Shown here: positions 34,212 to 58,190 of the stretch, piece by piece
How positions within the stretch are numbered: position 1 is the stretch's first letter
Layout: every line of letters starts with the position of its first letter
Assembly (NCBI GenBank): GCA_903929005.1
Contig: CAIYTC010000202.1
Span: 3,080-67,079, forward strand
Direction: 5' to 3'
From: an uncultured Dehalococcoidia bacterium
GTDB taxonomy: Bacteria; Chloroflexota; Dehalococcoidia; GIF9; UBA5629
Length of the DNA stretch: 64,000 bases
Notes under the pieces: model-generated
Seen by the model: the letters and a program-made list of their open reading frames with translations, nothing else
The model's database searches: none
Told to the model about the DNA's origin: nothing
Position numbers and translations under genes: made by a program

Positions 34212-34928
34212 ATGGCATTAGTTGAATGGTCCCTTGATGAGAATATCGCCGTGCTCACCATGAACAGCGGTGAGAACAGGTTCAATCTTAATTTCTGCAA
34301 TGAATTGCTAAAAGCGCTTGACGATATCGAGACTAAGACCAGGGCCAATGCGCTGGTGGTCAAATCAGCAGACGAAAAGATCTGGTGCAATGGAATGGAC
34401 CTGGACTGGCTGGTGCCGGCCATTGCCAGGAAGGATCCGGATGTGGAAAAGTTCTTTGATACGCAGGACCGCGTGTACCGACGGGTGACCTTTTATCCCA
34501 TGCACACCGTGGCAGCGCTGACAGGGCACGCCTTCGCCGGGGGCGCTATCCTAGCCTGCTCCTTCGATTTCCTTTTCATGCGCGCCGACCGCGGCTTCCT
34601 GTGCTTCCCTGAAGTGGATTTGAATATACCCTTCCTGCCCTATATGGATGCCCTGATTAAGAGGGCCATGCCGAGGCATAAGGTGATCGAAGCCGAGCTC
34701 ACAGGCAAGCGCTTTACGGCCGCCGAACTGGAGAAATTCAACGTGATACGCAAGGCCTGCCCTTCCGCTGAAGAAACGGTAAAAGAGGCTGTTGCCTATG
34801 CCAAAAGCCTGAATAAGGGCAGGGGCATAGTGGGCGAGATGAAAAAGGTCATGAATGCAGACATAGCGCAGTTTATGGATAACATCGTGAGGCCGAACCT
34901 GGAAACCGGCAACGTGCCAATAAAATGA
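34212..34928 (+). CDS. Enoyl-CoA hydratase/isomerase (crotonase) family protein
   Basis: 'ALTGHAFAGGAILACSFDFLFM' oxyanion-hole region. Confidence 0.7.
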   Translation: MALVEWSLDENIAVLTMNSGENRFNLNFCNELLKALDDIETKTRANALVVKSADEKIWCNGMDLDWLVPAIARKDPDVEKFFDTQDRVYRRVTFYPMHTVAALTGHAFAGGAILACSFDFLFMRADRGFLCFPEVDLNIPFLPYMDALIKRAMPRHKVIEAELTGKRFTAAELEKFNVIRKACPSAEETVKEAVAYAKSLNKGRGIVGEMKKVMNADIAQFMDNIVRPNLETGNVPIK

Positions 34929-36604
34929 TTCCGTTGCAGAAATATAACCGGGGCTTCATCCGCAACCACAATACCTCCGGGGTTGTCTTTGCCGCAGTAT
35001 TCACGTTTGTCTTACTGCCTCTACTCATGTGCTGGTGCGGCTGCGCCGGGATAACGGACTCCCTTGTACTGGTACATGCGGATAACGTGACCGCTACCGG
35101 TATCATAGTTGATAAGGCTGGCTACGTCGTCACCTGCGCCCACACAGTGAGCGGGGCTAATTCGATAGCTGTTGAACTGACGCCCGGGACGAATTATGAA
35201 GGCCGCGTAGTGTGCACAGATAATGCACGGGATGTCGCCATTATAAAGATGGCGGGAAATTTCCCCGCACTGAAACCGGTTATCATCGGTGATTCCGACC
35301 TGATGCATCAGTGGGATGAAGTGACCTCCGCGGGGTATAAGCCAGGAGATACCAAAGCTTTGACGTCAAAAGGGGCCGTTACAGGGCTGCCTAAGGCAGA
35401 CGGCATAAGTTACCTGCAGACAAATGCTGCTCTCGACCCCGGGCTTACCTCCAGCGCGATACTTAATAAAGCAGGTGAGCTGGTTGGGATGGTAAGCGGG
35501 AATTCCGGTAAGGCCGGGCGCGAGGGTTATGCTCTGTCAGCCAACGAGGTGCGTACCGTTTTATCGCAGGCACAGGAAGCCGAGGCGACACCCCTAACTA
35601 TTGTGCCGCTGGACCCTCCCTCTGTATATGGGGACCATGTAATAGTGGCGTGGAAGACCAGCAGGCCGGCCACAGGGCAGGTGGAATACGGGACTCAGGT
35701 ATCCTACGGCAACAGGAATATCCCGGAGGCCACTTTGATTGAGTCACACAGTTCGGTTATTCAGAATCTGCAACCTAAAACGGCCTACCATTTCAGGGTC
35801 AGATCGGTTGACTGCTGCGGCATTGAAGCTGTGTCAAAGGACTACGTATTCACAACAACGGCGGCCAGTGTCCAGGGGGGCAAATTCGCCGTCTCGAATA
35901 TCGATATATATGACATTGCCAGCACAGCCGCAACAGTACGTTGGATAACCAATAAGCCTGCTACAAGCCTGCTAAGTTACAGCGCGGACAAGCAGGGAGA
36001 AGCCGACTCGGAATCTGATAATACCCTAGTCTACGAACATAAGATCAGGTTGAATGGCTTGCGGCCTGAAACACGCTATAGCCTTAACATAAAATCGGTG
36101 ACTGACTACGACGAGGTAGAGCAGCAAAACCTGAGCCCTTTCACTACACTGCCCAGTTCTCCGGTCTGCTGCAAAATCAACTGCCGGCTATCGGATTTTG
36201 CCTTTAAGACTCTGCAGGGCGGGGATTTTACCAACCGGGATATCCTGGGCAAGAAAGTATTCATGCTCTTCACTAAAACTTCCTGCCCTACGTGCATGCA
36301 GCAGGCCATCTTCCTCAATGATGTTTACGCTAACTGGCCAAAAGGCACAGACATGGTCATGTTCATGGTCGCCAGCAGCGAGAAGAAGGCTGATGTCGAG
36401 GAATGGATAAAGAAATACGGTTTAAGCGTGCCGATTTACATTGACCCCACGGCGAACCTGGTCAGCGGCTGCCAATTCAGGACCATACCCACCTCGCTTT
36501 TCCTGGATACAGGGTCGGTGATACGCGACTATAAGAGCGGCGGGTTCGGCAATAAAAAAGATATGGAAACAACAGTGAAGCGGTTTTACGAAACAGAAAG
36601 GTAG
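34925..36604 (+). CDS. Membrane-anchored multidomain protein: trypsin-like (S1C) domain + 2 FN3-like domains + TlpA-like thioredoxin (CPTC)
   Basis: 'GTGIIVDKAGYVVTCAHTV' (His), 'DVAIIKM' (Asp), 'GLTSSAILNKAGELVGMVSG' (non-canonical Ser region); FN3-like segments; C-terminal 'KKVFMLFTKTSCPTCMQQ' thioredoxin motif. Confidence 0.55.
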   Translation: MIPLQKYNRGFIRNHNTSGVVFAAVFTFVLLPLLMCWCGCAGITDSLVLVHADNVTATGIIVDKAGYVVTCAHTVSGANSIAVELTPGTNYEGRVVCTDNARDVAIIKMAGNFPALKPVIIGDSDLMHQWDEVTSAGYKPGDTKALTSKGAVTGLPKADGISYLQTNAALDPGLTSSAILNKAGELVGMVSGNSGKAGREGYALSANEVRTVLSQAQEAEATPLTIVPLDPPSVYGDHVIVAWKTSRPATGQVEYGTQVSYGNRNIPEATLIESHSSVIQNLQPKTAYHFRVRSVDCCGIEAVSKDYVFTTTAASVQGGKFAVSNIDIYDIASTAATVRWITNKPATSLLSYSADKQGEADSESDNTLVYEHKIRLNGLRPETRYSLNIKSVTDYDEVEQQNLSPFTTLPSSPVCCKINCRLSDFAFKTLQGGDFTNRDILGKKVFMLFTKTSCPTCMQQAIFLNDVYANWPKGTDMVMFMVASSEKKADVEEWIKKYGLSVPIYIDPTANLVSGCQFRTIPTSLFLDTGSVIRDYKSGGFGNKKDMETTVKRFYETER

Positions 36605-36722: not shown

Positions 36723-38090
36723 TTACGGTTTGTATGTGATTGTAAGGGCGCCGGCAAGGTCGACATTATCGCCCTCTTTGAGGATGTGCTTGCCCTTGCC
36801 GCGGATATCTGTACCATTCAGCCTGGTGCCGTTGGTGCTGCCACGGTCCTCGATATAGTAATCGCCGTTTTCGTAGCTAATGTAAATATGCTGGCGTGAT
36901 ATTAGATCAGCCTTACCCGGCCCGGCCAGTGCATGGAAATCGTTGCGTCCCAGTGACTGGCCTCCGGCCGCAAGGGAAATCTCCTTCCCTCCGCCCGCTG
37001 TGAATTTGGCCGCGGGACCGGTTGCGACGGCGGTAGTGGCATGTGAACCGGCAGCGGGCAGTGTGGCGGCAGGCACCGTGGATGAAGCTATGTAGCCTGC
37101 CCGTGTGCCGAAGTTGCGCCCTGAATAGGCTGGCACCGGTTTCCTCACCAGCAGGAAGATTATTACTGCAGCCGCTACGGCCAGCAGGCCGATCATCAAG
37201 GCGTACAATAGCCAGAGGTTGAGCGCCGGGCTGCCGCCGCTGCTGACCCCGCTGGTTAATATCCCGCCTGTGCCGGCGGTGTAACCACTGCTGCCGGTAG
37301 TTGTGTTAACACCACTGCCTGTACTGTATGTGGAATAGTACTGTGCTACAGTAACGGTAGTGCCGGCGCTCACGCTGCCCCCGCTGCCGCTGGCTGTAAG
37401 CGTATAGGTGGTTGTATAGGCAGGCGTGGTAGTATAGACACCCGTGCCGGGCACCGAGCCCACCGAGGGCGAAATTGTAACGTCGCTGGCGTTATTCACT
37501 GTCCATGACAGGACGGTGGATTGGCCGGGCTGTATATAGCTCGGGTTAGCAGTGAAGGAACTGATCACCGGCTCATAGACCGGCTGAGGTTGGGGTATCT
37601 CAACTACTATCTCAGGGGTATAAGTATTTACGTAGGGAGACCACCTTGCGTAGGGATATGGCCACACATAGGGATCCGAGTAATATGGGTATGAAGGAAC
37701 AGGTGGGCGGGGATGTGATGGGCCCGGGGGAAAAGGATGATGTCTCGTATGATTCTCTGATGAGGACGCCGGCGACAGATCCACCGTGGAAGGCGGTATA
37801 GCAGCAGGCTCTGTTACAGGGTCAGGCGCAGGAGGAACCGGCAGTTCCGGCGCCAGGTCAGCCGTGGAAGGTGGTGTAGCATCAGGCTCTGTTACAGGGT
37901 CAGGCGCAGGAGGGACCGGCGGCTCCAGCGCATCCGGTGGTGGTGAAACAGGCTCATCATCGGCCTGCCAGGCCAGGCCTTTATCGATTGCCGTGTCCGT
38001 TACAGCCCGGGCGGGCGTAACCGACAGCAAAAACGCAGTGCATATTAACAGTGCTGTTGCCAGGATCAGAGTTGTTTTTCTTAGATTCAT
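36723..38090 (-). CDS. Receptor-like FHA protein 1: signal peptide, Pro-rich repeats, conserved extracellular module + Ig-like domain, 1 TM, cytoplasmic FHA
   Basis: Start trimmed to 'MNLRKTTLILATALLICTAFLL' (RBS AAGGAGA); TM 'LWLLYALMIGLLAVAAAVIIFLLV'; FHA 'ISRQHIYISYENGDYYIEDRGSTNGTRLNG'. Confidence 0.7.
   Translation of the reverse strand: MNLRKTTLILATALLICTAFLLSVTPARAVTDTAIDKGLAWQADDEPVSPPPDALEPPVPPAPDPVTEPDATPPSTADLAPELPVPPAPDPVTEPAAIPPSTVDLSPASSSENHTRHHPFPPGPSHPRPPVPSYPYYSDPYVWPYPYARWSPYVNTYTPEIVVEIPQPQPVYEPVISSFTANPSYIQPGQSTVLSWTVNNASDVTISPSVGSVPGTGVYTTTPAYTTTYTLTASGSGGSVSAGTTVTVAQYYSTYSTGSGVNTTTGSSGYTAGTGGILTSGVSSGGSPALNLWLLYALMIGLLAVAAAVIIFLLVRKPVPAYSGRNFGTRAGYIASSTVPAATLPAAGSHATTAVATGPAAKFTAGGGKEISLAAGGQSLGRNDFHALAGPGKADLISRQHIYISYENGDYYIEDRGSTNGTRLNGTDIRGKGKHILKEGDNVDLAGALTITYKP
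37786..37941. repeat. Tandem 78-bp (26-aa) repeat, 2 copies, in the Pro-rich region of FHA protein 1
   Basis: Units start at 37786 and 37864 ('gtggaagg.ggt.tagca.caggctctgttacagggtcaggcgcaggagg.accggc…'); encodes 'PPAPDPVTEP..PPST.DL' twice. Confidence 0.55.
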
Positions 38091-38109
38091 TTGGTTCTCC
38101 TTATACAGA

Positions 38110-39660
38110 TTACATTTTGAATGTGATGTTGAGTTTGCCTGCCAGGTCAATTGCATCGCCGTTCTCCAGGACGTGCCTGCCTGCGTCTTTGATCTCTGTC
38201 CCGTTGACCCTTGTGCCGTTGGTGCTGCTGCGGTCCTCGATATAATATTTATTATCTTCATACCAGATATTGATATGCTGACGGGAAATGAAAGAAACGT
38301 AGTCCGGCGGCACGAATTTTTCAAAATCCTTGCGGCCAAACGGGCGGGCGTTGCCTGCCAGCAGCACTTCGCTGCCGTCGGGCATGGCAAGTTTGGCTGC
38401 GGGGGCCGCTATCACATCCGTAGTTGATGGTGATTCTGCGGCCGCTAATGTGGCGGCGGCCGCGGTGGCAGTGCCTGCCCGCGTGCCGGCCTCATGGCCC
38501 GCCGGGGCGGTTGCCGTCTTCCTGACCAGCAGGGCGACTATTACCGCGGCGGCTATTGCCAGCAACGCTATTAAACCATACAGCAGGTACGGCGGCTGCT
38601 CAACGGTTACGGTAGTAAATGCAGTGAGTGCCGTTCCGTCCATATAGGTGGCGGTTAGCGTATAGACGGTGGTATCTTCCGGCTTCACCTCGGTGGTCCC
38701 GCCGGCGCCAAAAGACCCGGCGCCGCTTATAAATACCTGCACGGCTGCGGGAGCGCTCCAGGATAGTGTCGTGGAATGTCCGCTCTGTATCCTAATCTGG
38801 GCCGCGCTGATGGTGGGCGGTATGCGCGGCAATACCGTTACACTGGCTGACGATGATACGGGGTTGCCCGACCGGCCCGTGGCCGTTAGCGAATAGGAGG
38901 TGGTTGTAGATGGCGTGACCGTGGTAGAGCCGGAGGCGCCGACCGTGCCGATGTCGGGCGAGATGCTTACGCTGCTGGCATTGCTGGTGGTCCAGGTGAG
39001 CGTGACGGTTTGCCCGAGCTCGACCGAGGGTAAATTCGCGCTGAAAGAGTTGATCACGGGGGGATAGACCGGCTGTTGTGTGGGGCCGGGAAGGCCGTAT
39101 GGATTGTAGCCCCTGGTGTAATTAAAGCTGAGGGTGCGCGTCGACCAGTTGCCGACGGTGATGAACCACATCTTCCAGGTATAGCTGCCGTCGGGGTCAA
39201 AGGAGCTGGCAGTGAACGGCCCGATCCTCCAGACACCGGCATAAGGACGGTCCCACCTGTAACACAGCCAGTGCCCGTAAGACGGGGCGCCGTAAGGGTA
39301 ATATTCCCATAAATAAAAATAACCCGGGCTATTGAAAGATATCACCAGGTAGCAGGCTTCGTTGGCATACAGGGTGGATACGAGCTGCCCGTAGCTGTTG
39401 ACAAGGTACGCATTGGTAATTGAACCGGATACTCCGGGTGGAACGGGTGACGGCGCCAGCATCTGCAGGTTGGGCCATGTCTGGCGGTAAGTTTCCACGC
39501 CGACGGATGGCGCCAGGGATTCGCCGCCCTCGTCGGGCGGCTGCCAGGCAGCTTCCGGGCTGGCAGGCGGGGATGGCTGGGCCTGCACCGGTGAGAGCGA
39601 TGTAACAACGGATGAAATGGCCAGCGCCAGGATAAGCAGCGTCAAGCATATATTTTTCAT
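38110..39660 (-). CDS. Receptor-like FHA protein 2 (paralog)
   Basis: Start at 'MKNICLTLLILALAISS' (GGGAGGTGA 8 nt upstream); 'LWEYYPYGAPSYGHWLCYRWDRPYAGVWRIGPF'; Ig-like 'PVINSFSANLPSVELGQTVTLTWTTSNASSVSISPDIGTV'; TM; FHA 'ISRQHINIWYEDNKYYIEDRSSTNGTRVNG'. Confidence 0.7.
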   Translation of the reverse strand: MKNICLTLLILALAISSVVTSLSPVQAQPSPPASPEAAWQPPDEGGESLAPSVGVETYRQTWPNLQMLAPSPVPPGVSGSITNAYLVNSYGQLVSTLYANEACYLVISFNSPGYFYLWEYYPYGAPSYGHWLCYRWDRPYAGVWRIGPFTASSFDPDGSYTWKMWFITVGNWSTRTLSFNYTRGYNPYGLPGPTQQPVYPPVINSFSANLPSVELGQTVTLTWTTSNASSVSISPDIGTVGASGSTTVTPSTTTSYSLTATGRSGNPVSSSASVTVLPRIPPTISAAQIRIQSGHSTTLSWSAPAAVQVFISGAGSFGAGGTTEVKPEDTTVYTLTATYMDGTALTAFTTVTVEQPPYLLYGLIALLAIAAAVIVALLVRKTATAPAGHEAGTRAGTATAAAATLAAAESPSTTDVIAAPAAKLAMPDGSEVLLAGNARPFGRKDFEKFVPPDYVSFISRQHINIWYEDNKYYIEDRSSTNGTRVNGTEIKDAGRHVLENGDAIDLAGKLNITFKM

Positions 39661-39831
39661 GGGGGAAATCACCTCCCGGATGCAATAACTCATATTCTGT
39701 TATCACTATACGCCGGACGGGGAGCGGTTGCTTGACTGCAGGCTGACAGGCCGCTGACAGTTTTCTGACAAAGCCATGGTTAGCGGCGGCAGTAAAGGGC
39801 AGGGTTAATCCGGGGGAAAGCGGCTTTGATT

Positions 39832-41118
39832 TCAGCGTGTGTGAAATCTCAGTTTGACAGTGCCGGCCGGTTCAATCAGGTCGCCGTCGTTAAGGCTGAC
39901 CTCTCCCCGGTCCCGGATGTCTGTGCTGTTGAGACTGGTTCCGCCGCCGCCCGTATCTTCAATGAAGTGTTGCCCATCGGCGCAGGTGATGCGGAAGTGC
40001 TGCCGGGAGATAAAGCATAGTTCATCCAGCCCGAGTGCCCTGGCCAGCTCACCCCTGCCTATGGTCTGGCTGCTGCCGGCAAGCTGAATCTCCAGCCCAT
40101 TGGGCAGGGCTAAATATGCCCTGGGGGCTGCCGGGGCGTCAGGCTGTTCTGACAGGGCTGGGAGCGAAGAAGGCGGGCTCTCTATGGCTGTGGGCCCGGC
40201 ATAGCGCCTGCGCAACGTCAGGCCGAGCAGGACGATAAGTGCTCCTGCTGCGAGGCCCAGGATGATCAGGATCACCGGGTTGCCGAGGAATTTAAGCGCC
40301 TGGCCGGGAAAGGCCACTGGCCTGACTGTGACAGTGGCGGATTGGGATAGCACTTTTCCGCCCGGGTCCCGGGCTGTCAATATATAGGTAGCTGTCGAAG
40401 GAGGTTTAATCAGCCATGTCCCGCCTGGCCCGGCTACCGTGCCTATATCCGATATCTCTATAGCGCTTGAACCCTGGACGTCCCAGGAAAGCAGCGTGTC
40501 CTCCCCGGAATTGATGCAGGGCGGGTTAACCTCGAAAGAAACGATTTTAAGTTCCGGGTAGCTTTTGGAATAAGTCCAGAAAATAGCATAATTCCGCTGT
40601 TCTTTAGGGTCCTCGGCGGCCCACTGACCGTTGCCGTAAAACCAGGTCCTGTAAATATGCTGTCCTTCCGGCTCGGCATTGCCGGGGCTGAAGGGGCCAA
40701 GCTTCCACAGGCCGCTTTCCGTAAGGCGCCATTTATAGGCTATCCATTTTCCTCCGGGATTGCTGCCTTTAGGGTAGTATTCATAAATATAAAGCCAGCC
40801 GGGCGAGTTGACGTCTACATCCAGGTACCATTTGTCATCTGCTGTGACCTTATATTTTGCCTGCGCCGATACAGCGCTGAAACTGGCTATAAAGCTGGGG
40901 GGAGTGCTCTTGTCCTGTAATGTCGGTCCTTGCAAAAGGAAATTGACATGAGGCTTGATTTCATCGTTGGCGGGGTCGTTGGTGGGGATGTCGGGTATAG
41001 TGTAATTTTCTGTTGGCGCACCCACCGCTGAGGTACCCGACGGGAAGCCGGCTATTGCTGCCAGCGCACTAACAAGCAGTAACAGGGCTAAGGCAAGGCA
41101 GAAGCTGTTTAATCTCAT
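39832..41118 (-). CDS. Receptor-like FHA protein 3 (paralog)
   Basis: 'LYIYEYYPKGSNPGGKWIAYKWRLTESGLWKLGPF'; Ig-like 'IVSFEVNPPCINSGEDTLLSWDVQGSSAIEISDIGTV'; TM; FHA 'ISRQHFRITCADGQHFIEDTGGGGTSLNS'; 4-nt overlap with the kinase gene. Confidence 0.7.
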   Translation of the reverse strand: MRLNSFCLALALLLLVSALAAIAGFPSGTSAVGAPTENYTIPDIPTNDPANDEIKPHVNFLLQGPTLQDKSTPPSFIASFSAVSAQAKYKVTADDKWYLDVDVNSPGWLYIYEYYPKGSNPGGKWIAYKWRLTESGLWKLGPFSPGNAEPEGQHIYRTWFYGNGQWAAEDPKEQRNYAIFWTYSKSYPELKIVSFEVNPPCINSGEDTLLSWDVQGSSAIEISDIGTVAGPGGTWLIKPPSTATYILTARDPGGKVLSQSATVTVRPVAFPGQALKFLGNPVILIILGLAAGALIVLLGLTLRRRYAGPTAIESPPSSLPALSEQPDAPAAPRAYLALPNGLEIQLAGSSQTIGRGELARALGLDELCFISRQHFRITCADGQHFIEDTGGGGTSLNSTDIRDRGEVSLNDGDLIEPAGTVKLRFHTR

Positions 41119-42134
41119 TTCGGGGCCTCCGCGTTCCCGGGTGGGGTAAGGCTGGCCGGTGACAGCGCAGCCTGCATGGCGCGTGCCCCGGCGAACCTGC
41201 TGCCCGGGGAGAACATGCTTCCCTGCGACAGACAGCGCGCAGTGCGCTTCGATATACCGGCTGAAATGAGGCAGTTGGCCACGGCTGCGGCTTCGCTGTA
41301 GGAGCGCGGCCAGTTGCTATTAATCAGGCTGTAGCAGAGGTCATTGGGTGGCCGCAGTGTGAGCAGGTAGATGCAGGTCTGCGCTACCCCGCACAGGTCG
41401 CAGCGCTGGTCGCTTTCACCGCCCATGAAGAGCTCGGGTATATCAAAGCCCTTGTTGGCGATCTGCGTGAACGGGTCTTTGCTTTCAGGCTCTCTTTTGG
41501 CCCCGCTGAGGCCTTTAGCCGTGCCGAAATCGATCAGCTTGATCGTACCTTCGCTGGTCAGCATGATATTTTTAGGATTAACGTCACGGTGGACGATACC
41601 GGCGCTGTGTATATAAGAGAGCGCATCCAGCACCTGGCAGGCCCAAGCCACGACCTTTTCTTCCCTGTAGCAAGACCTTGGCGCAGAGGGCATAATGGTC
41701 TCACCATTAATATACTCGATAACCAGGTGGAATTCGCCGTTCAAATAGAAATCGTCCAGGTATTTGACGAGGTTGGGATGGCTCAGTTTCTTGAGGTAGC
41801 CGGCTTCCTGCATGAGCTTGTCCAGGTAGACGTTATCGATGTTGGTGCCCCGGCGCGGCGTCTTGATGATGCATGTCCTATTGGTGCCCCGCTCTTTGGC
41901 CAGCCAGATGGTGGCCATGCCGCCCTGCTTGTAAGGCTGGGATTTTATCTCGTAGCGCCCGTTGACCGGGCCTGCGCTGCCGGTTGCTGAGGGAGGCGGT
42001 TGCAGTGTTTGGCCGGGCGCAGCCGGCGGTCCGTTGCTATCACGTTTCCTTGCGGTCCGGATTATAGTCACGGCCACCGGTATGCTGGAAACGATCAGCG
42101 CAATTAAAACGATAAGAGGAGCAAAATCAGCCAT
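41115..42134 (-). CDS. Hanks-type Ser/Thr protein kinase, N-terminal single TM anchor, no sensor domain
   Basis: 'IVHRDVNPKNIML' catalytic loop, 'IDFGTAKG' DFG, Lys in 'CIIKTP'; TM 'LIVLIALIVSSIPVAVTII'. Confidence 0.8.
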   Translation of the reverse strand: MADFAPLIVLIALIVSSIPVAVTIIRTARKRDSNGPPAAPGQTLQPPPSATGSAGPVNGRYEIKSQPYKQGGMATIWLAKERGTNRTCIIKTPRRGTNIDNVYLDKLMQEAGYLKKLSHPNLVKYLDDFYLNGEFHLVIEYINGETIMPSAPRSCYREEKVVAWACQVLDALSYIHSAGIVHRDVNPKNIMLTSEGTIKLIDFGTAKGLSGAKREPESKDPFTQIANKGFDIPELFMGGESDQRCDLCGVAQTCIYLLTLRPPNDLCYSLINSNWPRSYSEAAAVANCLISAGISKRTARCLSQGSMFSPGSRFAGARAMQAALSPASLTPPGNAEAPK

Positions 42135-42937
42135 CAGGCGACTCCTATGCTAGTCTGCACGCTCATCATTGCCTGCCAGGAGGGCAGGTTTTCCGGCCTG
42201 GCAATAATCACCGATATATTATCAGGGCCTCCTGCCAGGTTGGCCTGTGCCGTCAGTTCGCGGCAGGCCTGGGCTGCGCTGCGGGAGCCGAGCACGACCT
42301 CCGAAATCCTTTCGGCCGGCAGCACACCGCAGAGGCCGTCCGAGCAAAGCAGTATACTGTCCCCGGCGTAGAGCTTCACCTGCAACAGGTCAGGGAGCGT
42401 GTCAGGATAATAGCCGAGTACGCGTGTGATCTCATTTTTGCGTGGGTGGACCATGGCCTCGTCGGGCGTGATCAGGCCGCTATCTATGAGGTGCTGGACG
42501 ACGGAATGGTCTTTAGTTACCTGCAGGGTCTCCCTGCTGTTGATAATGCTGCAGCGGGAATCGCCGACGTGAGCCACGTACATTTCCTGGCCAAGCACCA
42601 GGCTGGCGGTGAGGGTCGTGCCCATGCCTTCCAGCGACCTTTCTTTGGCTGCCGTGAGGACGGTGTCGTTGGCTTTCTTGAAGGCATCAGCCATCAGGCT
42701 GAGGGGACCGGCATCGGCCCGCGCCAGCAGGGCGCTGATGCACTCCGAGCAAAATGTTTTCAGGGCAAGGTCGCTGGCTATTTCACCGGCGTCGTGGCCG
42801 CCCATACCGTCAGCCACCACGAATAATCCGGCGGAGGCGGTCCCCAGGTGGGTCATGATATCGAAGATGCCGCAAAAGATGCTATCCTCGTTGAGCTTCC
42901 TGGTCAGCCCGGTATCCCAGCTATAACCTCTTTCCAA
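42134..42937 (-). CDS. PP2C-family Ser/Thr protein phosphatase
   Basis: 'VVADGMGGHDAGEIAS', 'LLCSDGL' PP2C metal-binding motifs; stop overlaps the kinase start. Confidence 0.8.
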   Translation of the reverse strand: MERGYSWDTGLTRKLNEDSIFCGIFDIMTHLGTASAGLFVVADGMGGHDAGEIASDLALKTFCSECISALLARADAGPLSLMADAFKKANDTVLTAAKERSLEGMGTTLTASLVLGQEMYVAHVGDSRCSIINSRETLQVTKDHSVVQHLIDSGLITPDEAMVHPRKNEITRVLGYYPDTLPDLLQVKLYAGDSILLCSDGLCGVLPAERISEVVLGSRSAAQACRELTAQANLAGGPDNISVIIARPENLPSWQAMMSVQTSIGVA

Positions 42938-42962: not shown

Positions 42963-43532
42963 TTATACTAACCTGAAAGTAAGTGTGGCATCCGGCTGGC
43001 GGGACAGTTCGATCTGGTCGCCGTCTTTCAGCGCCTGCCTGCCTTTATGATGTATGTCAGCTTTGTTGAGCTTGGCATGGTTGGTACTGCCCGTGCCGTC
43101 ACGGCCGTAGTCCTGCGCATAATAGGTACCGTTTTCATAAGTTATCAGCAGGTGCTGCCTGGAGATGCTCATCAACATATCCTGGGGCAGCTTGCCGTTA
43201 AAATCGCTGCGTTCGATGAAGGTTGGTGCGCCCATGAGCAGGATTTCAGAACCGCCCGGCATGATCACCTTAGCTTTGGGAACGGGCGGCGGTGGCACGG
43301 CGCCCTGTTCCGTTTTAGCGGCGCCGTTGACGCCGCGGTCTTCATCGCCGGCAGCAAAATATTCCCCGCAGTTGTAGCAAAAGAAGCTGGCTGCGTTGTT
43401 TAAGCTTTGACACTTCGGGCAGTTGATCCCGCTATCTATCCTGTCAGCCTGTTGCGAGGCAAGGGCGCCCCCGCACTTCCAGCAGATTTTCTCCGCGGCA
43501 GCGTTCTCCTGCCCGCATACCTGGCATAGCAT
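42963..43532 (-). CDS. Double zinc-ribbon + FHA domain protein
   Basis: 'CQVCGQ…CWKCGG' and 'CPKCQS…CYNCGE' ribbons; FHA 'ISRQHLLITYENGTYYAQDYG…STNHAKLN'. Confidence 0.7.
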   Translation of the reverse strand: MLCQVCGQENAAAEKICWKCGGALASQQADRIDSGINCPKCQSLNNAASFFCYNCGEYFAAGDEDRGVNGAAKTEQGAVPPPPVPKAKVIMPGGSEILLMGAPTFIERSDFNGKLPQDMLMSISRQHLLITYENGTYYAQDYGRDGTGSTNHAKLNKADIHHKGRQALKDGDQIELSRQPDATLTFRLV

Positions 43533-43700: not shown

Positions 43701-44390
43701 ATGAACCAGGCTTTTATCACTGTCAGGAGGGGCCAGGCGGAGGACGCCGGCAAAGTATTTACTATAAATAAAGCCAGCACCGTCATAGGCCGCCGCACGC
43801 CGCAGTACGTGCCAGACATCGAATTGAACGATGAAGCGGTTTCCAGGCGCCACCTTGAAATAATTGCCAGGGGCGATAGATACCTGCTGCAGGATCTGGG
43901 CAGCACCAACGGTACTATGCTGGATGGTGACCGTATCATGCCCGGCAAGTTATATACCCTCAAGCATAACAGCCAGATCGGCCTGGGTGTGGATGGTGAC
44001 GGGGCGCACATCATAATCGTATTCAAAGAATCGGAAAGCACCAACGTATTAACGGGTGATAAGAAACAGGCTGCTAAAAAGGGCAAAGCGGCGCCGGTGG
44101 CCTGGCTGAAGATTGACGAAGGCAAAAAAGAGGCCAGTGTCGATGGACAAGCGGCGAAGCTTTCACGTAAGGAATACGACCTCTTGCTTTTCCTCCGCAG
44201 CAACGCCGGGCAGGTGTGCTCCCGCGACGAGATTATCAAGGCGGTCTGGCCTGAAAGCCAGGATCCCGCCGCGATCTCCGACGCCACGGTCGACCAGCTA
44301 ATCCACAGGCTGCGTGAAAAGGTGGAACCGGAACCCGCCAGGCCCGCACGCATCATAAGCAAGGTGGGGTTCGGGTATATGCTGGGGTGA
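43701..44390 (+). CDS. FHA-domain + OmpR/PhoB-type winged-helix transcriptional regulator
   Basis: N-terminal FHA 'VSRRHLEIIARGDRYLLQDLGSTNGTMLDG'; C-terminal 'LSRKEYDLLLFLRSNAGQVCSRDEIIKAVW…ATVDQLIHRLREKV…VGFGYML' (trans_reg_C). Confidence 0.7.
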   Translation: MNQAFITVRRGQAEDAGKVFTINKASTVIGRRTPQYVPDIELNDEAVSRRHLEIIARGDRYLLQDLGSTNGTMLDGDRIMPGKLYTLKHNSQIGLGVDGDGAHIIIVFKESESTNVLTGDKKQAAKKGKAAPVAWLKIDEGKKEASVDGQAAKLSRKEYDLLLFLRSNAGQVCSRDEIIKAVWPESQDPAAISDATVDQLIHRLREKVEPEPARPARIISKVGFGYMLG

Positions 44391-56816: not shown

Positions 56817-58190
56817 TTACTCCGGTCCGACGGGGGGGCACCCCCAGGTTTCCTGGTAAGAGTTGTTAGTCTCATCGGACTCGTTAACTACCCCTTCGCT
56901 ATCGATGACCGCCCTCATCGTGCTATGTGCGCCGACCTCACATAAGTGGTGGTAACTCGGGAAAGTAAGGGTGGTTTGCCCTCCCGCAACTATCCCGCCA
57001 GGGACATTTATTGTACCAACATGGATCCCACCGCGATACAGCTTGATCCAGAACCCCCCCGAATCCAGAGTGCCTATGTTCTTTGCCGTGACTTTGACCG
57101 TGTTAGAGGGCGCAGGACCGTACGCAATATCGGTAATCTTCAGGTCAGGCTTTAAAGCCAGCATTGGCCCCACAGACCCGATGGAAAGACAGGTAAACGT
57201 CTTGGCCATACTGTTGTTGGCCCCGTTAGATTCCACGGCGACATTGGTTGAATCGGCCGTGACCACCACGCTGTCCGACAGCCCGGTGCATAAGTAGGCA
57301 TAGGCGCTGAACGACTGGGTGCTGGCAGCGGCAACGGCCAGCACCGGCACCGAATCGGTGGCTTTCACAGCCCCGTCAATGGTCAACTTTGTTACCGTAA
57401 CGGGCGCTGAGGCCGTCCCCTGGTTCTTGATACGGTAATATATTTTGGCGCCTGATTTCCATACATCTTCGATGACCAGGTCCGGCTTCAACGTTGCCGC
57501 GGCAGCAACCGAGACGGTGACCGTGGCCTGGCCGAAATAGGCCGTATTGGCTGCGGTCAGCGTATAGGTCGTATTGACAGCCGGTGACACGGCCCTGGCG
57601 CCGGTCAGTCCCACGCTGCCCACTCCGTGATCTATGGTTACGGCTACGGCGTTGCCGACATCCCAGCTAAGGGTTGAGGTAGCGCCTGCAGCAATCCCCG
57701 CCGGTGCAGCATTGAACGAGTTGATCACAGGCGGCGTCGGCCCGGGTGCGCCGCTGCCCGGATCGGCGGGCGGAGGTGTGCCCGGATCAGCGGGGGGAGG
57801 CTCGGCTGCGGCCTCGGTTATCACGTTCACCGTACCCTGCGTCTCGAGGGACCAGTTGCCCGAGCTGTCCTGCACAGAGAAAAGAACGATATGATTGCCC
57901 GGTGACAATTGAGTTGTATCAAAGTTTGCCCGGCTGCCCAGGTCGCCATCGATGCTGGAGCGCCAGAGATAGGCCGTGATGCTGCCGCTGGCAGCAGTGC
58001 CATGTCCGCTGAAGTTGACCGACTCACCCCAATTGAGGCTGCTGGGCGATATCCGGTCGATAAAGGCCGCCGGCTTATTTACGCCTGTGGATGCGCTGCC
58101 GGGGGCGGTAGCCCCGGGTTGAACAATAGTGAAACAAGCTGAACTCAGAATAGTGATCAATGCCAGTGCCAGATAAACAGACTTCTGCAT
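56817..58190 (-). CDS. Secreted protein with signal peptide, Pro-rich linker and Ig-like / CARDB-like beta domains
   Basis: 'MQKSVYLALALITILSSA'; 'PVINSFNAAPAGIAAGATSTLSWDVGNAVAVTIDHGVGSV' shares its pattern with the Ig-like domain of the three FHA receptors. Confidence 0.5.
   Translation of the reverse strand: MQKSVYLALALITILSSACFTIVQPGATAPGSASTGVNKPAAFIDRISPSSLNWGESVNFSGHGTAASGSITAYLWRSSIDGDLGSRANFDTTQLSPGNHIVLFSVQDSSGNWSLETQGTVNVITEAAAEPPPADPGTPPPADPGSGAPGPTPPVINSFNAAPAGIAAGATSTLSWDVGNAVAVTIDHGVGSVGLTGARAVSPAVNTTYTLTAANTAYFGQATVTVSVAAAATLKPDLVIEDVWKSGAKIYYRIKNQGTASAPVTVTKLTIDGAVKATDSVPVLAVAAASTQSFSAYAYLCTGLSDSVVVTADSTNVAVESNGANNSMAKTFTCLSIGSVGPMLALKPDLKITDIAYGPAPSNTVKVTAKNIGTLDSGGFWIKLYRGGIHVGTINVPGGIVAGGQTTLTFPSYHHLCEVGAHSTMRAVIDSEGVVNESDETNNSYQETWGCPPVGPE

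Follow-up and report, generated by a model that had tools for sequence, protein, structure and literature searches.

Signalling by Hanks-type Ser/Thr kinases in bacteria is mostly understood from kinases that carry a sensor of their own, such as the PASTA domains of PknB and StkP. In Mycobacterium tuberculosis, the FHA transcription regulator EmbR is controlled by the Hanks kinase PknH. In plants, the membrane-anchored KAPP, in which an FHA domain is fused to PP2C and which has no ectodomain, docks through that FHA domain on a phosphorylated membrane kinase. Here we describe a locus in a 64,000-nucleotide stretch of DNA from an uncultured Dehalococcoidia bacterium (GenBank assembly GCA_903929005.1, contig CAIYTC010000202.1, positions 3,080 to 67,079 of the forward strand), which is called the window below and whose own numbering is used. 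Three consecutive minus-strand genes, A, B and C (36723-41118), encode single-pass membrane proteins with an FHA domain, and they belong to a seven-gene cluster, a context that goes beyond the first-pass annotation of this DNA. The analysis shows the domain content and topology of these proteins, the fold class of a head domain in two of them and the conservation of the gene set. Our tentative reading is a split receptor-kinase system in which A, B and C would be the subunits facing the cell exterior, a reading to which we give a little less than an even chance and for which we infer the partners, the phosphorylation sites, the sensed signal and the direction of signalling. Membrane-anchored FHA proteins beside PP2C and Hanks kinases are already known, as are FHA-transmembrane-periplasmic proteins in the type III secretion system and FHA proteins in the type VI secretion system. 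New at this locus are a large ectodomain with an uncatalogued head, a trio of paralogs that is fixed and is paired with a kinase lacking a sensor and with an FHA-winged-helix protein, and the presence of the head domain in archaea. Searches of an incomplete literature collection for FHA proteins in Dehalococcoidia and Chloroflexi, membrane FHA receptors and FHA/zinc ribbon/PP2C neighbourhoods brought up no description of such a system.

FhaB-type FHA proteins are kinase substrates or partners in actinobacteria (PMC3989709). Like A, B and C, FhaB/FipA (Rv0019c) has a single transmembrane helix, a cytoplasmic linker and a C-terminal FHA domain, and its gene lies beside those of PP2C and a Hanks kinase; the primary paper on FipA and FtsZ is flagged as retracted. 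However, FhaB/FipA is about 155 amino acids (aa) long and has practically no ectodomain; A, B and C are proteins of 428-527 aa with ectodomains of 270-365 aa. The present locus also differs in having no rodA or pbpA neighbours and a kinase without PASTA or any other ectodomain. The partial alignment to the NCBIfam model of FhaB/FipA (NF049868) spanned the transmembrane helix through the FHA domain, and membership of this family was rejected for A, B and C at 19.3, 34.6 and 26.7 bits against a cutoff of 125.

This likeness bears on the alternative that A, B and C are envelope or cell-division scaffolds (S-layer or envelope organisers) whose assembly is controlled from the cytoplasmic side by the kinase and phosphatase and whose ectodomains bind envelope components instead of sensing an outside signal. 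The transmembrane-linker-FHA part of B aligned along most of the FhaB/FipA model below threshold, the cluster belongs to the core, keeps its synteny and has housekeeping genes on its flanks, and the actinobacterial fhaA-fhaB-pstP-pknA-pknB growth and division cluster offers a precedent (PMC3989709). However, scores of 19-35 bits are far under the cutoff of that model, no division or envelope-synthesis genes were present in or beside the cluster, and its DNA-binding output protein fits signalling to transcription better. We consider the scaffold alternative rather unlikely, although it is the strongest rival of the receptor reading.

In the type III (YscD/PrgH/EscD) and type VI (TagH/Fha) secretion systems, FHA domains are likewise joined through one transmembrane helix to beta-rich extracytoplasmic domains, and their models gave weak matches here. 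The orientation of YscD is opposite, its FHA domain being N-terminal and those of A, B and C C-terminal. Assignment to YscD (PF16697, Yop-YscD_cpl) was rejected at 20.6 and 19.9 bits versus 33.2, given the C-terminal FHA domain, and assignment to TagH (TIGR03354) at 27.6-40 bits versus 120, over the FHA part only; no secretion-system genes were found nearby in either case. EmbR combines an OmpR/PhoB-type winged helix with an FHA domain, as does the FHA-winged-helix protein of the cluster, which has the reversed order (FHA N-terminal) and no BTAD domain. In KAPP and, loosely, in pairs of a receptor and a non-receptor kinase, sensing and catalysis are split as they would be here; KAPP is a eukaryotic protein, and the comparison implies homology of the FHA domain at most.

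A signal peptide, an ectodomain, one transmembrane helix and a C-terminal FHA domain were recognized in this order in A, B and C by hydropathy and Pfam searches, the strongly hydrophobic helix lying about 130-160 residues ahead of the C-terminus in each. The FHA domains (PF00498) scored 32.5, 51.7 and 49 bits for A, B and C, respectively (gathering threshold 20.7), in agreement with the first-pass annotation, which had described an ectodomain, one transmembrane helix and a cytoplasmic FHA domain in all three tandem proteins. Topology was assessed by hydropathy and the positive-inside rule. Among 123 orthologs of A, B and C, the mean number of Lys and Arg in the 15 residues after the helix was 3.89, compared with 0.55 before it. 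Because of this positive-inside bias and the N-terminal signal sequence, the FHA domains are predicted to be cytoplasmic, so that the orientation proposed earlier was upheld. The likely partners, namely the kinase catalytic domain, PP2C and the two soluble FHA proteins, are cytoplasmic as well.

Two gene starts were revised. The open reading frame (ORF) listed for C (36723-38390) begins at a spurious upstream TTG at 38390 that overlaps gene B. As an AAGGAG Shine-Dalgarno sequence precedes the ATG at 38090, at a site 20 nt after the B stop, we take this ATG as the real start of C. B probably starts at Met12 (39660), since its orthologs begin at the equivalent residue (MKNICL/MKKIL). In A-type proteins, a conserved (D/E)-N-x-T sequon (APTENYTIPD, APSDNTTVPN and similar) follows a few residues past the predicted signal-peptide cleavage (window about 41000-41030, residues ~33-40; also in the A-type relatives P0008-P0029), and it might be an N-glycosylation or processing site.

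The kinase encoded next to A was analyzed for a sensor of its own. In all 40 orthologs the only hydrophobic segment was one transmembrane helix at the N-terminus, with basic residues after it, indicating a membrane-tethered kinase with about 5 residues outside and no sensor domain. The layout of receptor-type Hanks kinases such as PknB and StkP, with a kinase domain, a transmembrane helix and an extracellular sensor, was thus not found in the 41115-42134 kinase. The catalytic Lys (IIK), HRDVNPKN and DFG were conserved in at least 90%, as was DPFTQ in the activation loop, and the kinase is probably active judging from these residues. Its Gly-rich loop, KQGGMATIW, is unusual yet conserved.

One genome per GTDB species was scanned with a 9-sequence query and the pattern Gx[LF][YS][LI][YW]EY[YF]P; as this pattern favours B-type proteins, the taxonomic range obtained is a lower bound. 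The scan returned 56 loci, numbered with the prefix L, all from metagenome-assembled genomes (MAGs) of Dehalococcoidia/Chloroflexota (peat, soil, lake and sediment), with at best 82% identity over the module. With genes labelled by tblastn, the order of a divergently transcribed FHA-winged-helix gene, then zinc ribbon-FHA, PP2C, kinase, A, B and C was found in about 45 species-level Dehalococcoidia genomes, which is essentially every locus with enough flank. The FHA-winged-helix gene, the presumed transcriptional output, kept its divergent position among loci. Since this order is kept across about 45 loci, A, B and C represent three old orthologous groups and not recent duplicates. B orthologs were uniformly about 515-535 aa long with two Ig-like domains; A orthologs were usually about 365 aa long without an Ig-like domain, which occurred only in the subclade of the window (7 of 44).

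Two distant loci were rearranged. On a Logan contig from SRR23086390 (L061), the order was FHA-winged-helix, vWA, zinc ribbon-FHA, PP2C and three receptors, with the kinase on the other strand; on a contig from SRR29054613 (L059), it was FHA-winged-helix, three receptors, zinc ribbon-FHA, kinase and PP2C. The same gene set stays linked after these rearrangements, which argues for a functional unit and not mere inherited linkage. All three receptors at both loci carry the Tyr/Trp/Pro-rich head module described below (WY), so the ancestral arrangement probably comprised three proteins with WY, Ig-like, transmembrane and FHA parts.

The same neighbourhood data bear on whether the cluster serves in defence against phages or in conflict, with a Ser/Thr kinase as its basis. 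The kinase matched the PADLOC PD-T4-6 kinase models (E=1e-40) and one distant locus includes a vWA protein. However, the PD-T4-6 match reflects generic Hanks similarity, and PADLOC 2.0 gave nothing for the five FHA proteins and, besides the generic kinase match, a weak PP2C match, so that no known defence system was recognized. The cluster occupies a fixed position over about 45 species between housekeeping or metabolic genes unrelated to it (in the window radical SAM, enoyl-CoA hydratase, YhhN, amidase and others), unlike a defence island, and no variable island-like distribution was seen. The vWA systems of PMC7159879 also differ in composition. We give a defence role hardly any credence.

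The first-pass annotation had placed a conserved Tyr/Trp/Pro-rich block in all three ectodomains. Pairwise comparison bore this out for A and B, in which the block is homologous (BLASTP E=9e-25, 34% identity over 143 aa). It was not borne out for C, which matched B in BLASTP only in the Ig-like domain and in the transmembrane-linker-FHA part. Searching all six translated frames of the window with a hidden Markov model (HMM) of the family gave A and B as the only matches, and the three-way alignment showed gaps or low-complexity sequence in C where the block would fall. The same HMM detected WY in 44 of 44 A orthologs, in all 45 genuine B orthologs and in none of 30 C orthologs; five more third-position genes, labelled B by BLAST, were also without it. 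Within groups of orthologs, WY was about as conserved as the FHA domain (70% vs 71% for B and 58% vs 55% for A), which indicates that the paralogs are old and that the module is under purifying selection in each group. The proposal that the N-terminal regions diversified in ligand specificity is therefore doubtful, as hypervariability was confined to the low-complexity N-terminus of C.

The Pro-rich repeats reported for C were recovered as a tandem repeat in its gene (Table 1). They are followed by a Tyr/Pro/Trp-rich low-complexity stretch in place of WY, and C orthologs vary from 316 to 619 aa through a Pro/Thr-rich region. Right after the signal peptide, C keeps a B-like motif, AWQ(A/P)(D/P)DE, and for this reason it appears to be a paralog of the B type in which the head domain has been replaced.

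WY was predicted to be a folded domain of about 105 aa. AlphaFold2 with a 48-sequence alignment gave a confident model of the B segment (predicted local distance difference test score, pLDDT, 94.1; predicted template modelling score, pTM, 0.85), consisting of a beta-sandwich of eight strands without helices; full-length B modelled by AlphaFold from its single sequence reached a pLDDT of only 39.8. Conserved residues clustered in the loop between strands 4 and 5 (E-Y-Y-P-x-G) and at the end of strand 6 with the next loop (G-P-F-x-P-E-x-x-E-P-E-G). If the strands simply alternate in direction, both conserved loops would be found where the N- and C-termini are, at one end of the sandwich.

No described family was found for this domain. 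The WY modules of A and B had zero Pfam matches (Pfam-A 2025 copy) at E<=10, 48 WY modules scanned one by one had no Pfam family in common even at E<=10, and 55 full-length relatives shared no family over the WY block. NCBIfam 20.0 returned nothing on A, B and C beyond FHA-type partial matches, and the 48-sequence profile had zero matches to Protein Data Bank (PDB) sequences at E<=10. The earlier suggestion that these proteins do not belong to a described family therefore holds within the libraries used, and all carriers with a name were called 'hypothetical protein'. Foldseek searches of the PDB with the WY model returned generic sandwiches only (best E=2.4e-3, query TM-score <=0.64): the Wzt C-terminal domain, RhoGDI, a porphyran carbohydrate-binding module, FN3, macroglobulin domains of C5 and alpha2-macroglobulin, and a Haloferax S-layer domain. 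The S-layer match (TM-score 0.60) is one more point for the scaffold alternative. Matches in a viral structure library were likewise generic.

WY thus resembles Ig-like and E-set folds such as macroglobulin domains, RhoGDI, CARDB/DUF7507 and I-set (TM-score 0.55-0.64), and its profile weakly matched individual repeats of DUF7507 and I-set repeat proteins, without significant sequence or profile kinship (hhalign 0.2-12%). That WY arose as a copy of the adjacent Ig-like domain and then diverged was rejected (hhalign probability 0.2%), as was its identity with a DUF7507/CARDB or I-set repeat (1% and 12%), where the likeness is at motif level only. A relationship to DUF4384, considered because of a similar motif and a single viral Foldseek match (root-mean-square deviation 16), was unsupported, with no Pfam match at E<=10. 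WY is an Ig-like beta-sandwich fold without demonstrable membership in a described family.

The fold also bears on an adhesion role, in which the WY head would be homophilic or glycan-binding and the FHA tail would report or regulate attachment to cells or surfaces. The surface is rich in aromatic residues, the sandwich is like those of carbohydrate-binding modules and the Wzt C-terminal domain, the N-terminal head is borne on Ig-like stalks, and C has a Pro/Thr-rich, mucin-like region. However, the fold matches are weak (E of at least 2e-3, TM-score <=0.64) and unspecific, and Pfam scans gave no signature of a glycan-binding family. Adhesion is in our judgement improbable.

When 1.84 billion cluster representatives were searched exhaustively with HMMER, 81 proteins were retrieved at E<=1e-3, about 16 of them multi-repeat proteins that were taken as motif-level matches; 52 of the proteins reached E<=1e-10. 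It was this search that revealed the family, as a word-indexed homolog search had found N-terminal fragments only (4 and 8 matches). In true members, WY always lay at about residues 60-170, at the membrane-distal N-terminus of type-I membrane proteins, directly behind a signal peptide and a Pro/Trp segment that is conserved within each type ('APTENYTIPD' in A-type and 'PPxDPxxWxPP' in B-type proteins). Downstream came a variable stalk (Ig-like, Big_3_5, Filamin, CARDB or thrombospondin-type-3 repeats), one transmembrane helix and a tail, which was FHA in 30 of the 55 proteins scanned and in others a double zinc ribbon or a stub that is short and basic. Named carriers came from MAGs of Dehalococcoidia and Chloroflexi and from a Thermofilum archaeon. 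The archaeal proteins P0058 (Thermofilum sp. MCC6050697.1) and P0066 (L058:58-2217) have a WY head, a CARDB-type stalk and a short cytoplasmic tail. Their resemblance to surface-layer-associated proteins again favours the scaffold alternative. A Pfam match of P0066 to HAP2-GCS1 (E=1.6e-11, no single stretch significant) overlaps its CARDB-type Ig regions and was treated as a cross-match.

An Ig-like domain ('PVINSF...') precedes the transmembrane helix in all three proteins, as first described; A and C have one copy each, and in B a second copy was found that had not been described. Its reported recurrence in the 56817-58190 protein, in one copy, was confirmed (40% identity over 97 aa, E=1e-12). 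I-set (PF07679) matched 5 of 14 Ig-like copies below the gathering threshold (best E=5e-5), and a profile of the 14 copies matched a titin Ig domain in the PDB (E=4.8e-7) over its last 30 columns, in the F-G strand region. Owing to this weak similarity 'Ig-like' is a fair label, with no curated model reaching threshold. The 56817-58190 protein has no C-terminal transmembrane helix and no FHA domain, and its signal sequence ends in a possible lipoprotein-type Cys (...ILSSAC). Secreted or lipid-anchored, it is probably located at the cell surface, with no relation to the kinase cluster.

On the cytoplasmic side, the phosphothreonine-binding residues of the FHA domain (GR, SRQH and STNGT) were kept in B, C and their orthologs. 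The linkers between transmembrane helix and FHA domain were poorly conserved (21-39% identity). Within them, Thr415 ('AATL') and Thr425 ('STTDV') of B were conserved in 96% and 98% of 45 sequences (window 38380-38450), and Thr343 and Thr352 of C in 87% and 100% of 31 sequences (window 37035-37065). These threonines occupy equivalent positions in B and C and are candidate phospho-acceptor or FHA-docking sites.

For the split receptor-kinase system, we propose the following course. The Hanks kinase would be tethered by its N-terminal helix without sensing of its own, and A, B and C would supply the ectodomains, with a WY head on an Ig-like stalk in A and B and a Pro-rich extended region on an Ig-like stalk in C. 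The FHA domain of each would sit beside the kinase on the cytoplasmic face, where phosphothreonine made by the kinase could recruit it; candidate sites are the linker threonines of B and C and DPFTQ in the kinase activation loop. FHA docking would couple receptor clustering or the state of the surface to kinase activity. PP2C would reverse the phosphorylation and reset the system, and the soluble zinc ribbon-FHA protein and the FHA-winged-helix regulator would relay the signal to transcription.

Several observations weigh against this proposal. The FHA domain of A keeps GR and SRQH, but the conserved Asn of S-x-N-G-T is replaced by Gly (GGGGT/SAGGT) in A of the window and in its nearest relatives, L002-L006; the other approximately 38 A orthologs retain the Asn. 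Ortholog alignments revealed no conserved Thr in the A linker or in the juxtamembrane region of the kinase. Given the missing linker Thr and the Gly substitution, A may bind differently or more weakly. WY proteins without FHA (short tails, archaeal CARDB stalks) were not beside kinases in the one case examined: P0066 is encoded amid the housekeeping genes proteasome, NOG1 and SAMP2, with no kinase nearby, and on this ground the WY head could be structural or adhesive and not sensory. The generic sandwich matches of WY give no hint of a binding partner, and the host organisms are uncultured. As a separate observation, the A subclade with the Asn to Gly change is the only one with an Ig-like domain in A.

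The coordinates of all features are listed in Table 1.

Table 1. Features of the receptor trio, the kinase cluster and the unlinked Ig-like protein in the window
Feature	Position (nt)	Strand	Residues	Description
Gene A	39832-41118	-		428 aa; signal peptide, N-terminal segment APTENYTIPD..., WY head, one Ig-like, transmembrane helix, linker, FHA
A, WY beta-sandwich head	40549-40887	-	about 78-190	family HMM E=2.6e-41; aligned with B and 46 relatives
A, Ig-like domain	40315-40557	-	188-268	present in 7/44 A orthologs only
A, transmembrane helix	40213-40278	-	281-302	
A, FHA	about 39835-40113	-		
Gene B	38110-39693	-		527 aa as ORF; signal peptide, 'AWQPPDEGG' segment, WY head, two Ig-like, transmembrane helix, linker, FHA
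B, WY beta-sandwich head	39094-39432	-	88-200	modelled segment; HMM E=1.3e-39
B, two tandem Ig-like domains	38596-39066	-	210-292 and 293-366	
B, transmembrane helix	38524-38589	-	369-390	
B, FHA	about 38113-38385	-		
Gene C	36723-38090	-		455 aa; signal peptide, 'AWQADDEP' motif, Pro-rich repeats, low-complexity stretch, one Ig-like, transmembrane helix, linker, FHA; without WY
C, tandem repeat	37769-37931	-		78 bp, 2.1 copies; encodes 26-aa Pro-rich repeat
C, Ig-like domain	37335-37580	-		
C, transmembrane helix	37146-37217	-	292-315	
C, FHA	about 36726-36998	-		
Hanks-type Ser/Thr kinase	41115-42134	-		339 aa; one N-terminal transmembrane anchor; Pkinase (PF00069) 111.4 bits vs 31.7
PP2C Ser/Thr phosphatase	42134-42937	-		267 aa; cytoplasmic; PF00481/PF13672 57.3 and 43.6 bits, above threshold
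Double zinc ribbon + FHA protein	42963-43532	-		189 aa; soluble
FHA + OmpR/PhoB-type winged-helix DNA-binding protein	43701-44390	+		229 aa; FHA 61.7 bits, Trans_reg_C 72 bits
Ig-like-containing protein D	56817-58190	-		PKD-like, Ig-like (nt 57495-57737), two CARDB; unlinked to trio

Some further genes and relatives were noted around the cluster. Convergent with gene C, a plus-strand gene (34925-36604) encodes an unusual fusion that combines an N-terminal transmembrane helix with a trypsin-like protease of the HtrA type, two FN3/purple-acid-phosphatase-N-like domains and a Redoxin/AhpC-TSA domain of thioredoxin fold; among the nearer relatives, the gene was conserved at this place in L002, L004-L006, L019, L028, L037 and L048. 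At L001 (6695-8720; the same as L052), which belongs to a related MAG, extra genes between A and B encode a Gly/Asn-rich repeat protein, which we presume to resemble a beta-helix, and a CARDB protein with a transmembrane helix; in this long-read assembly, A and B are split by frameshifts. L061 also encodes a 229-aa Tyr/Gly-rich membrane protein. A and B had no match of 100% identity in two protein database searches (best 66-82%), and the nearest genome found was the MAG CAIMUM010000033 (uncultured Dehalococcoidia A14_bin-2372).

A stronger form of the split receptor-kinase proposal is that WY is a new extracellular ligand-binding domain of Dehalococcoidia and Thermoproteota archaea, and that A, B and C form a hetero-oligomeric receptor controlling an anchor-only Hanks kinase through docking of FHA on phosphothreonine. 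We regard this form as unlikely; if true, it would be a bacterial counterpart of receptor and non-receptor kinase signalling, in which sensing and catalysis are divided among different polypeptides. Whatever the mechanism, the WY block, at about 105 aa, is definable as a new family of domains that have a beta-sandwich fold and form the N-terminal head of type-I membrane proteins in Chloroflexota and archaea, and domain databases could take up this definition. Were A, B and C plain envelope scaffolds, the significance would be merely local. If they are receptors acting in trans, they would represent a distinct wiring of Ser/Thr signalling, in which up to three ectodomain proteins are each joined to a phosphothreonine reader, and the finding would open a first way into the function of a core module that is conserved in uncultured Dehalococcoidia, bacteria that abound in peat, sediments and aquifers.

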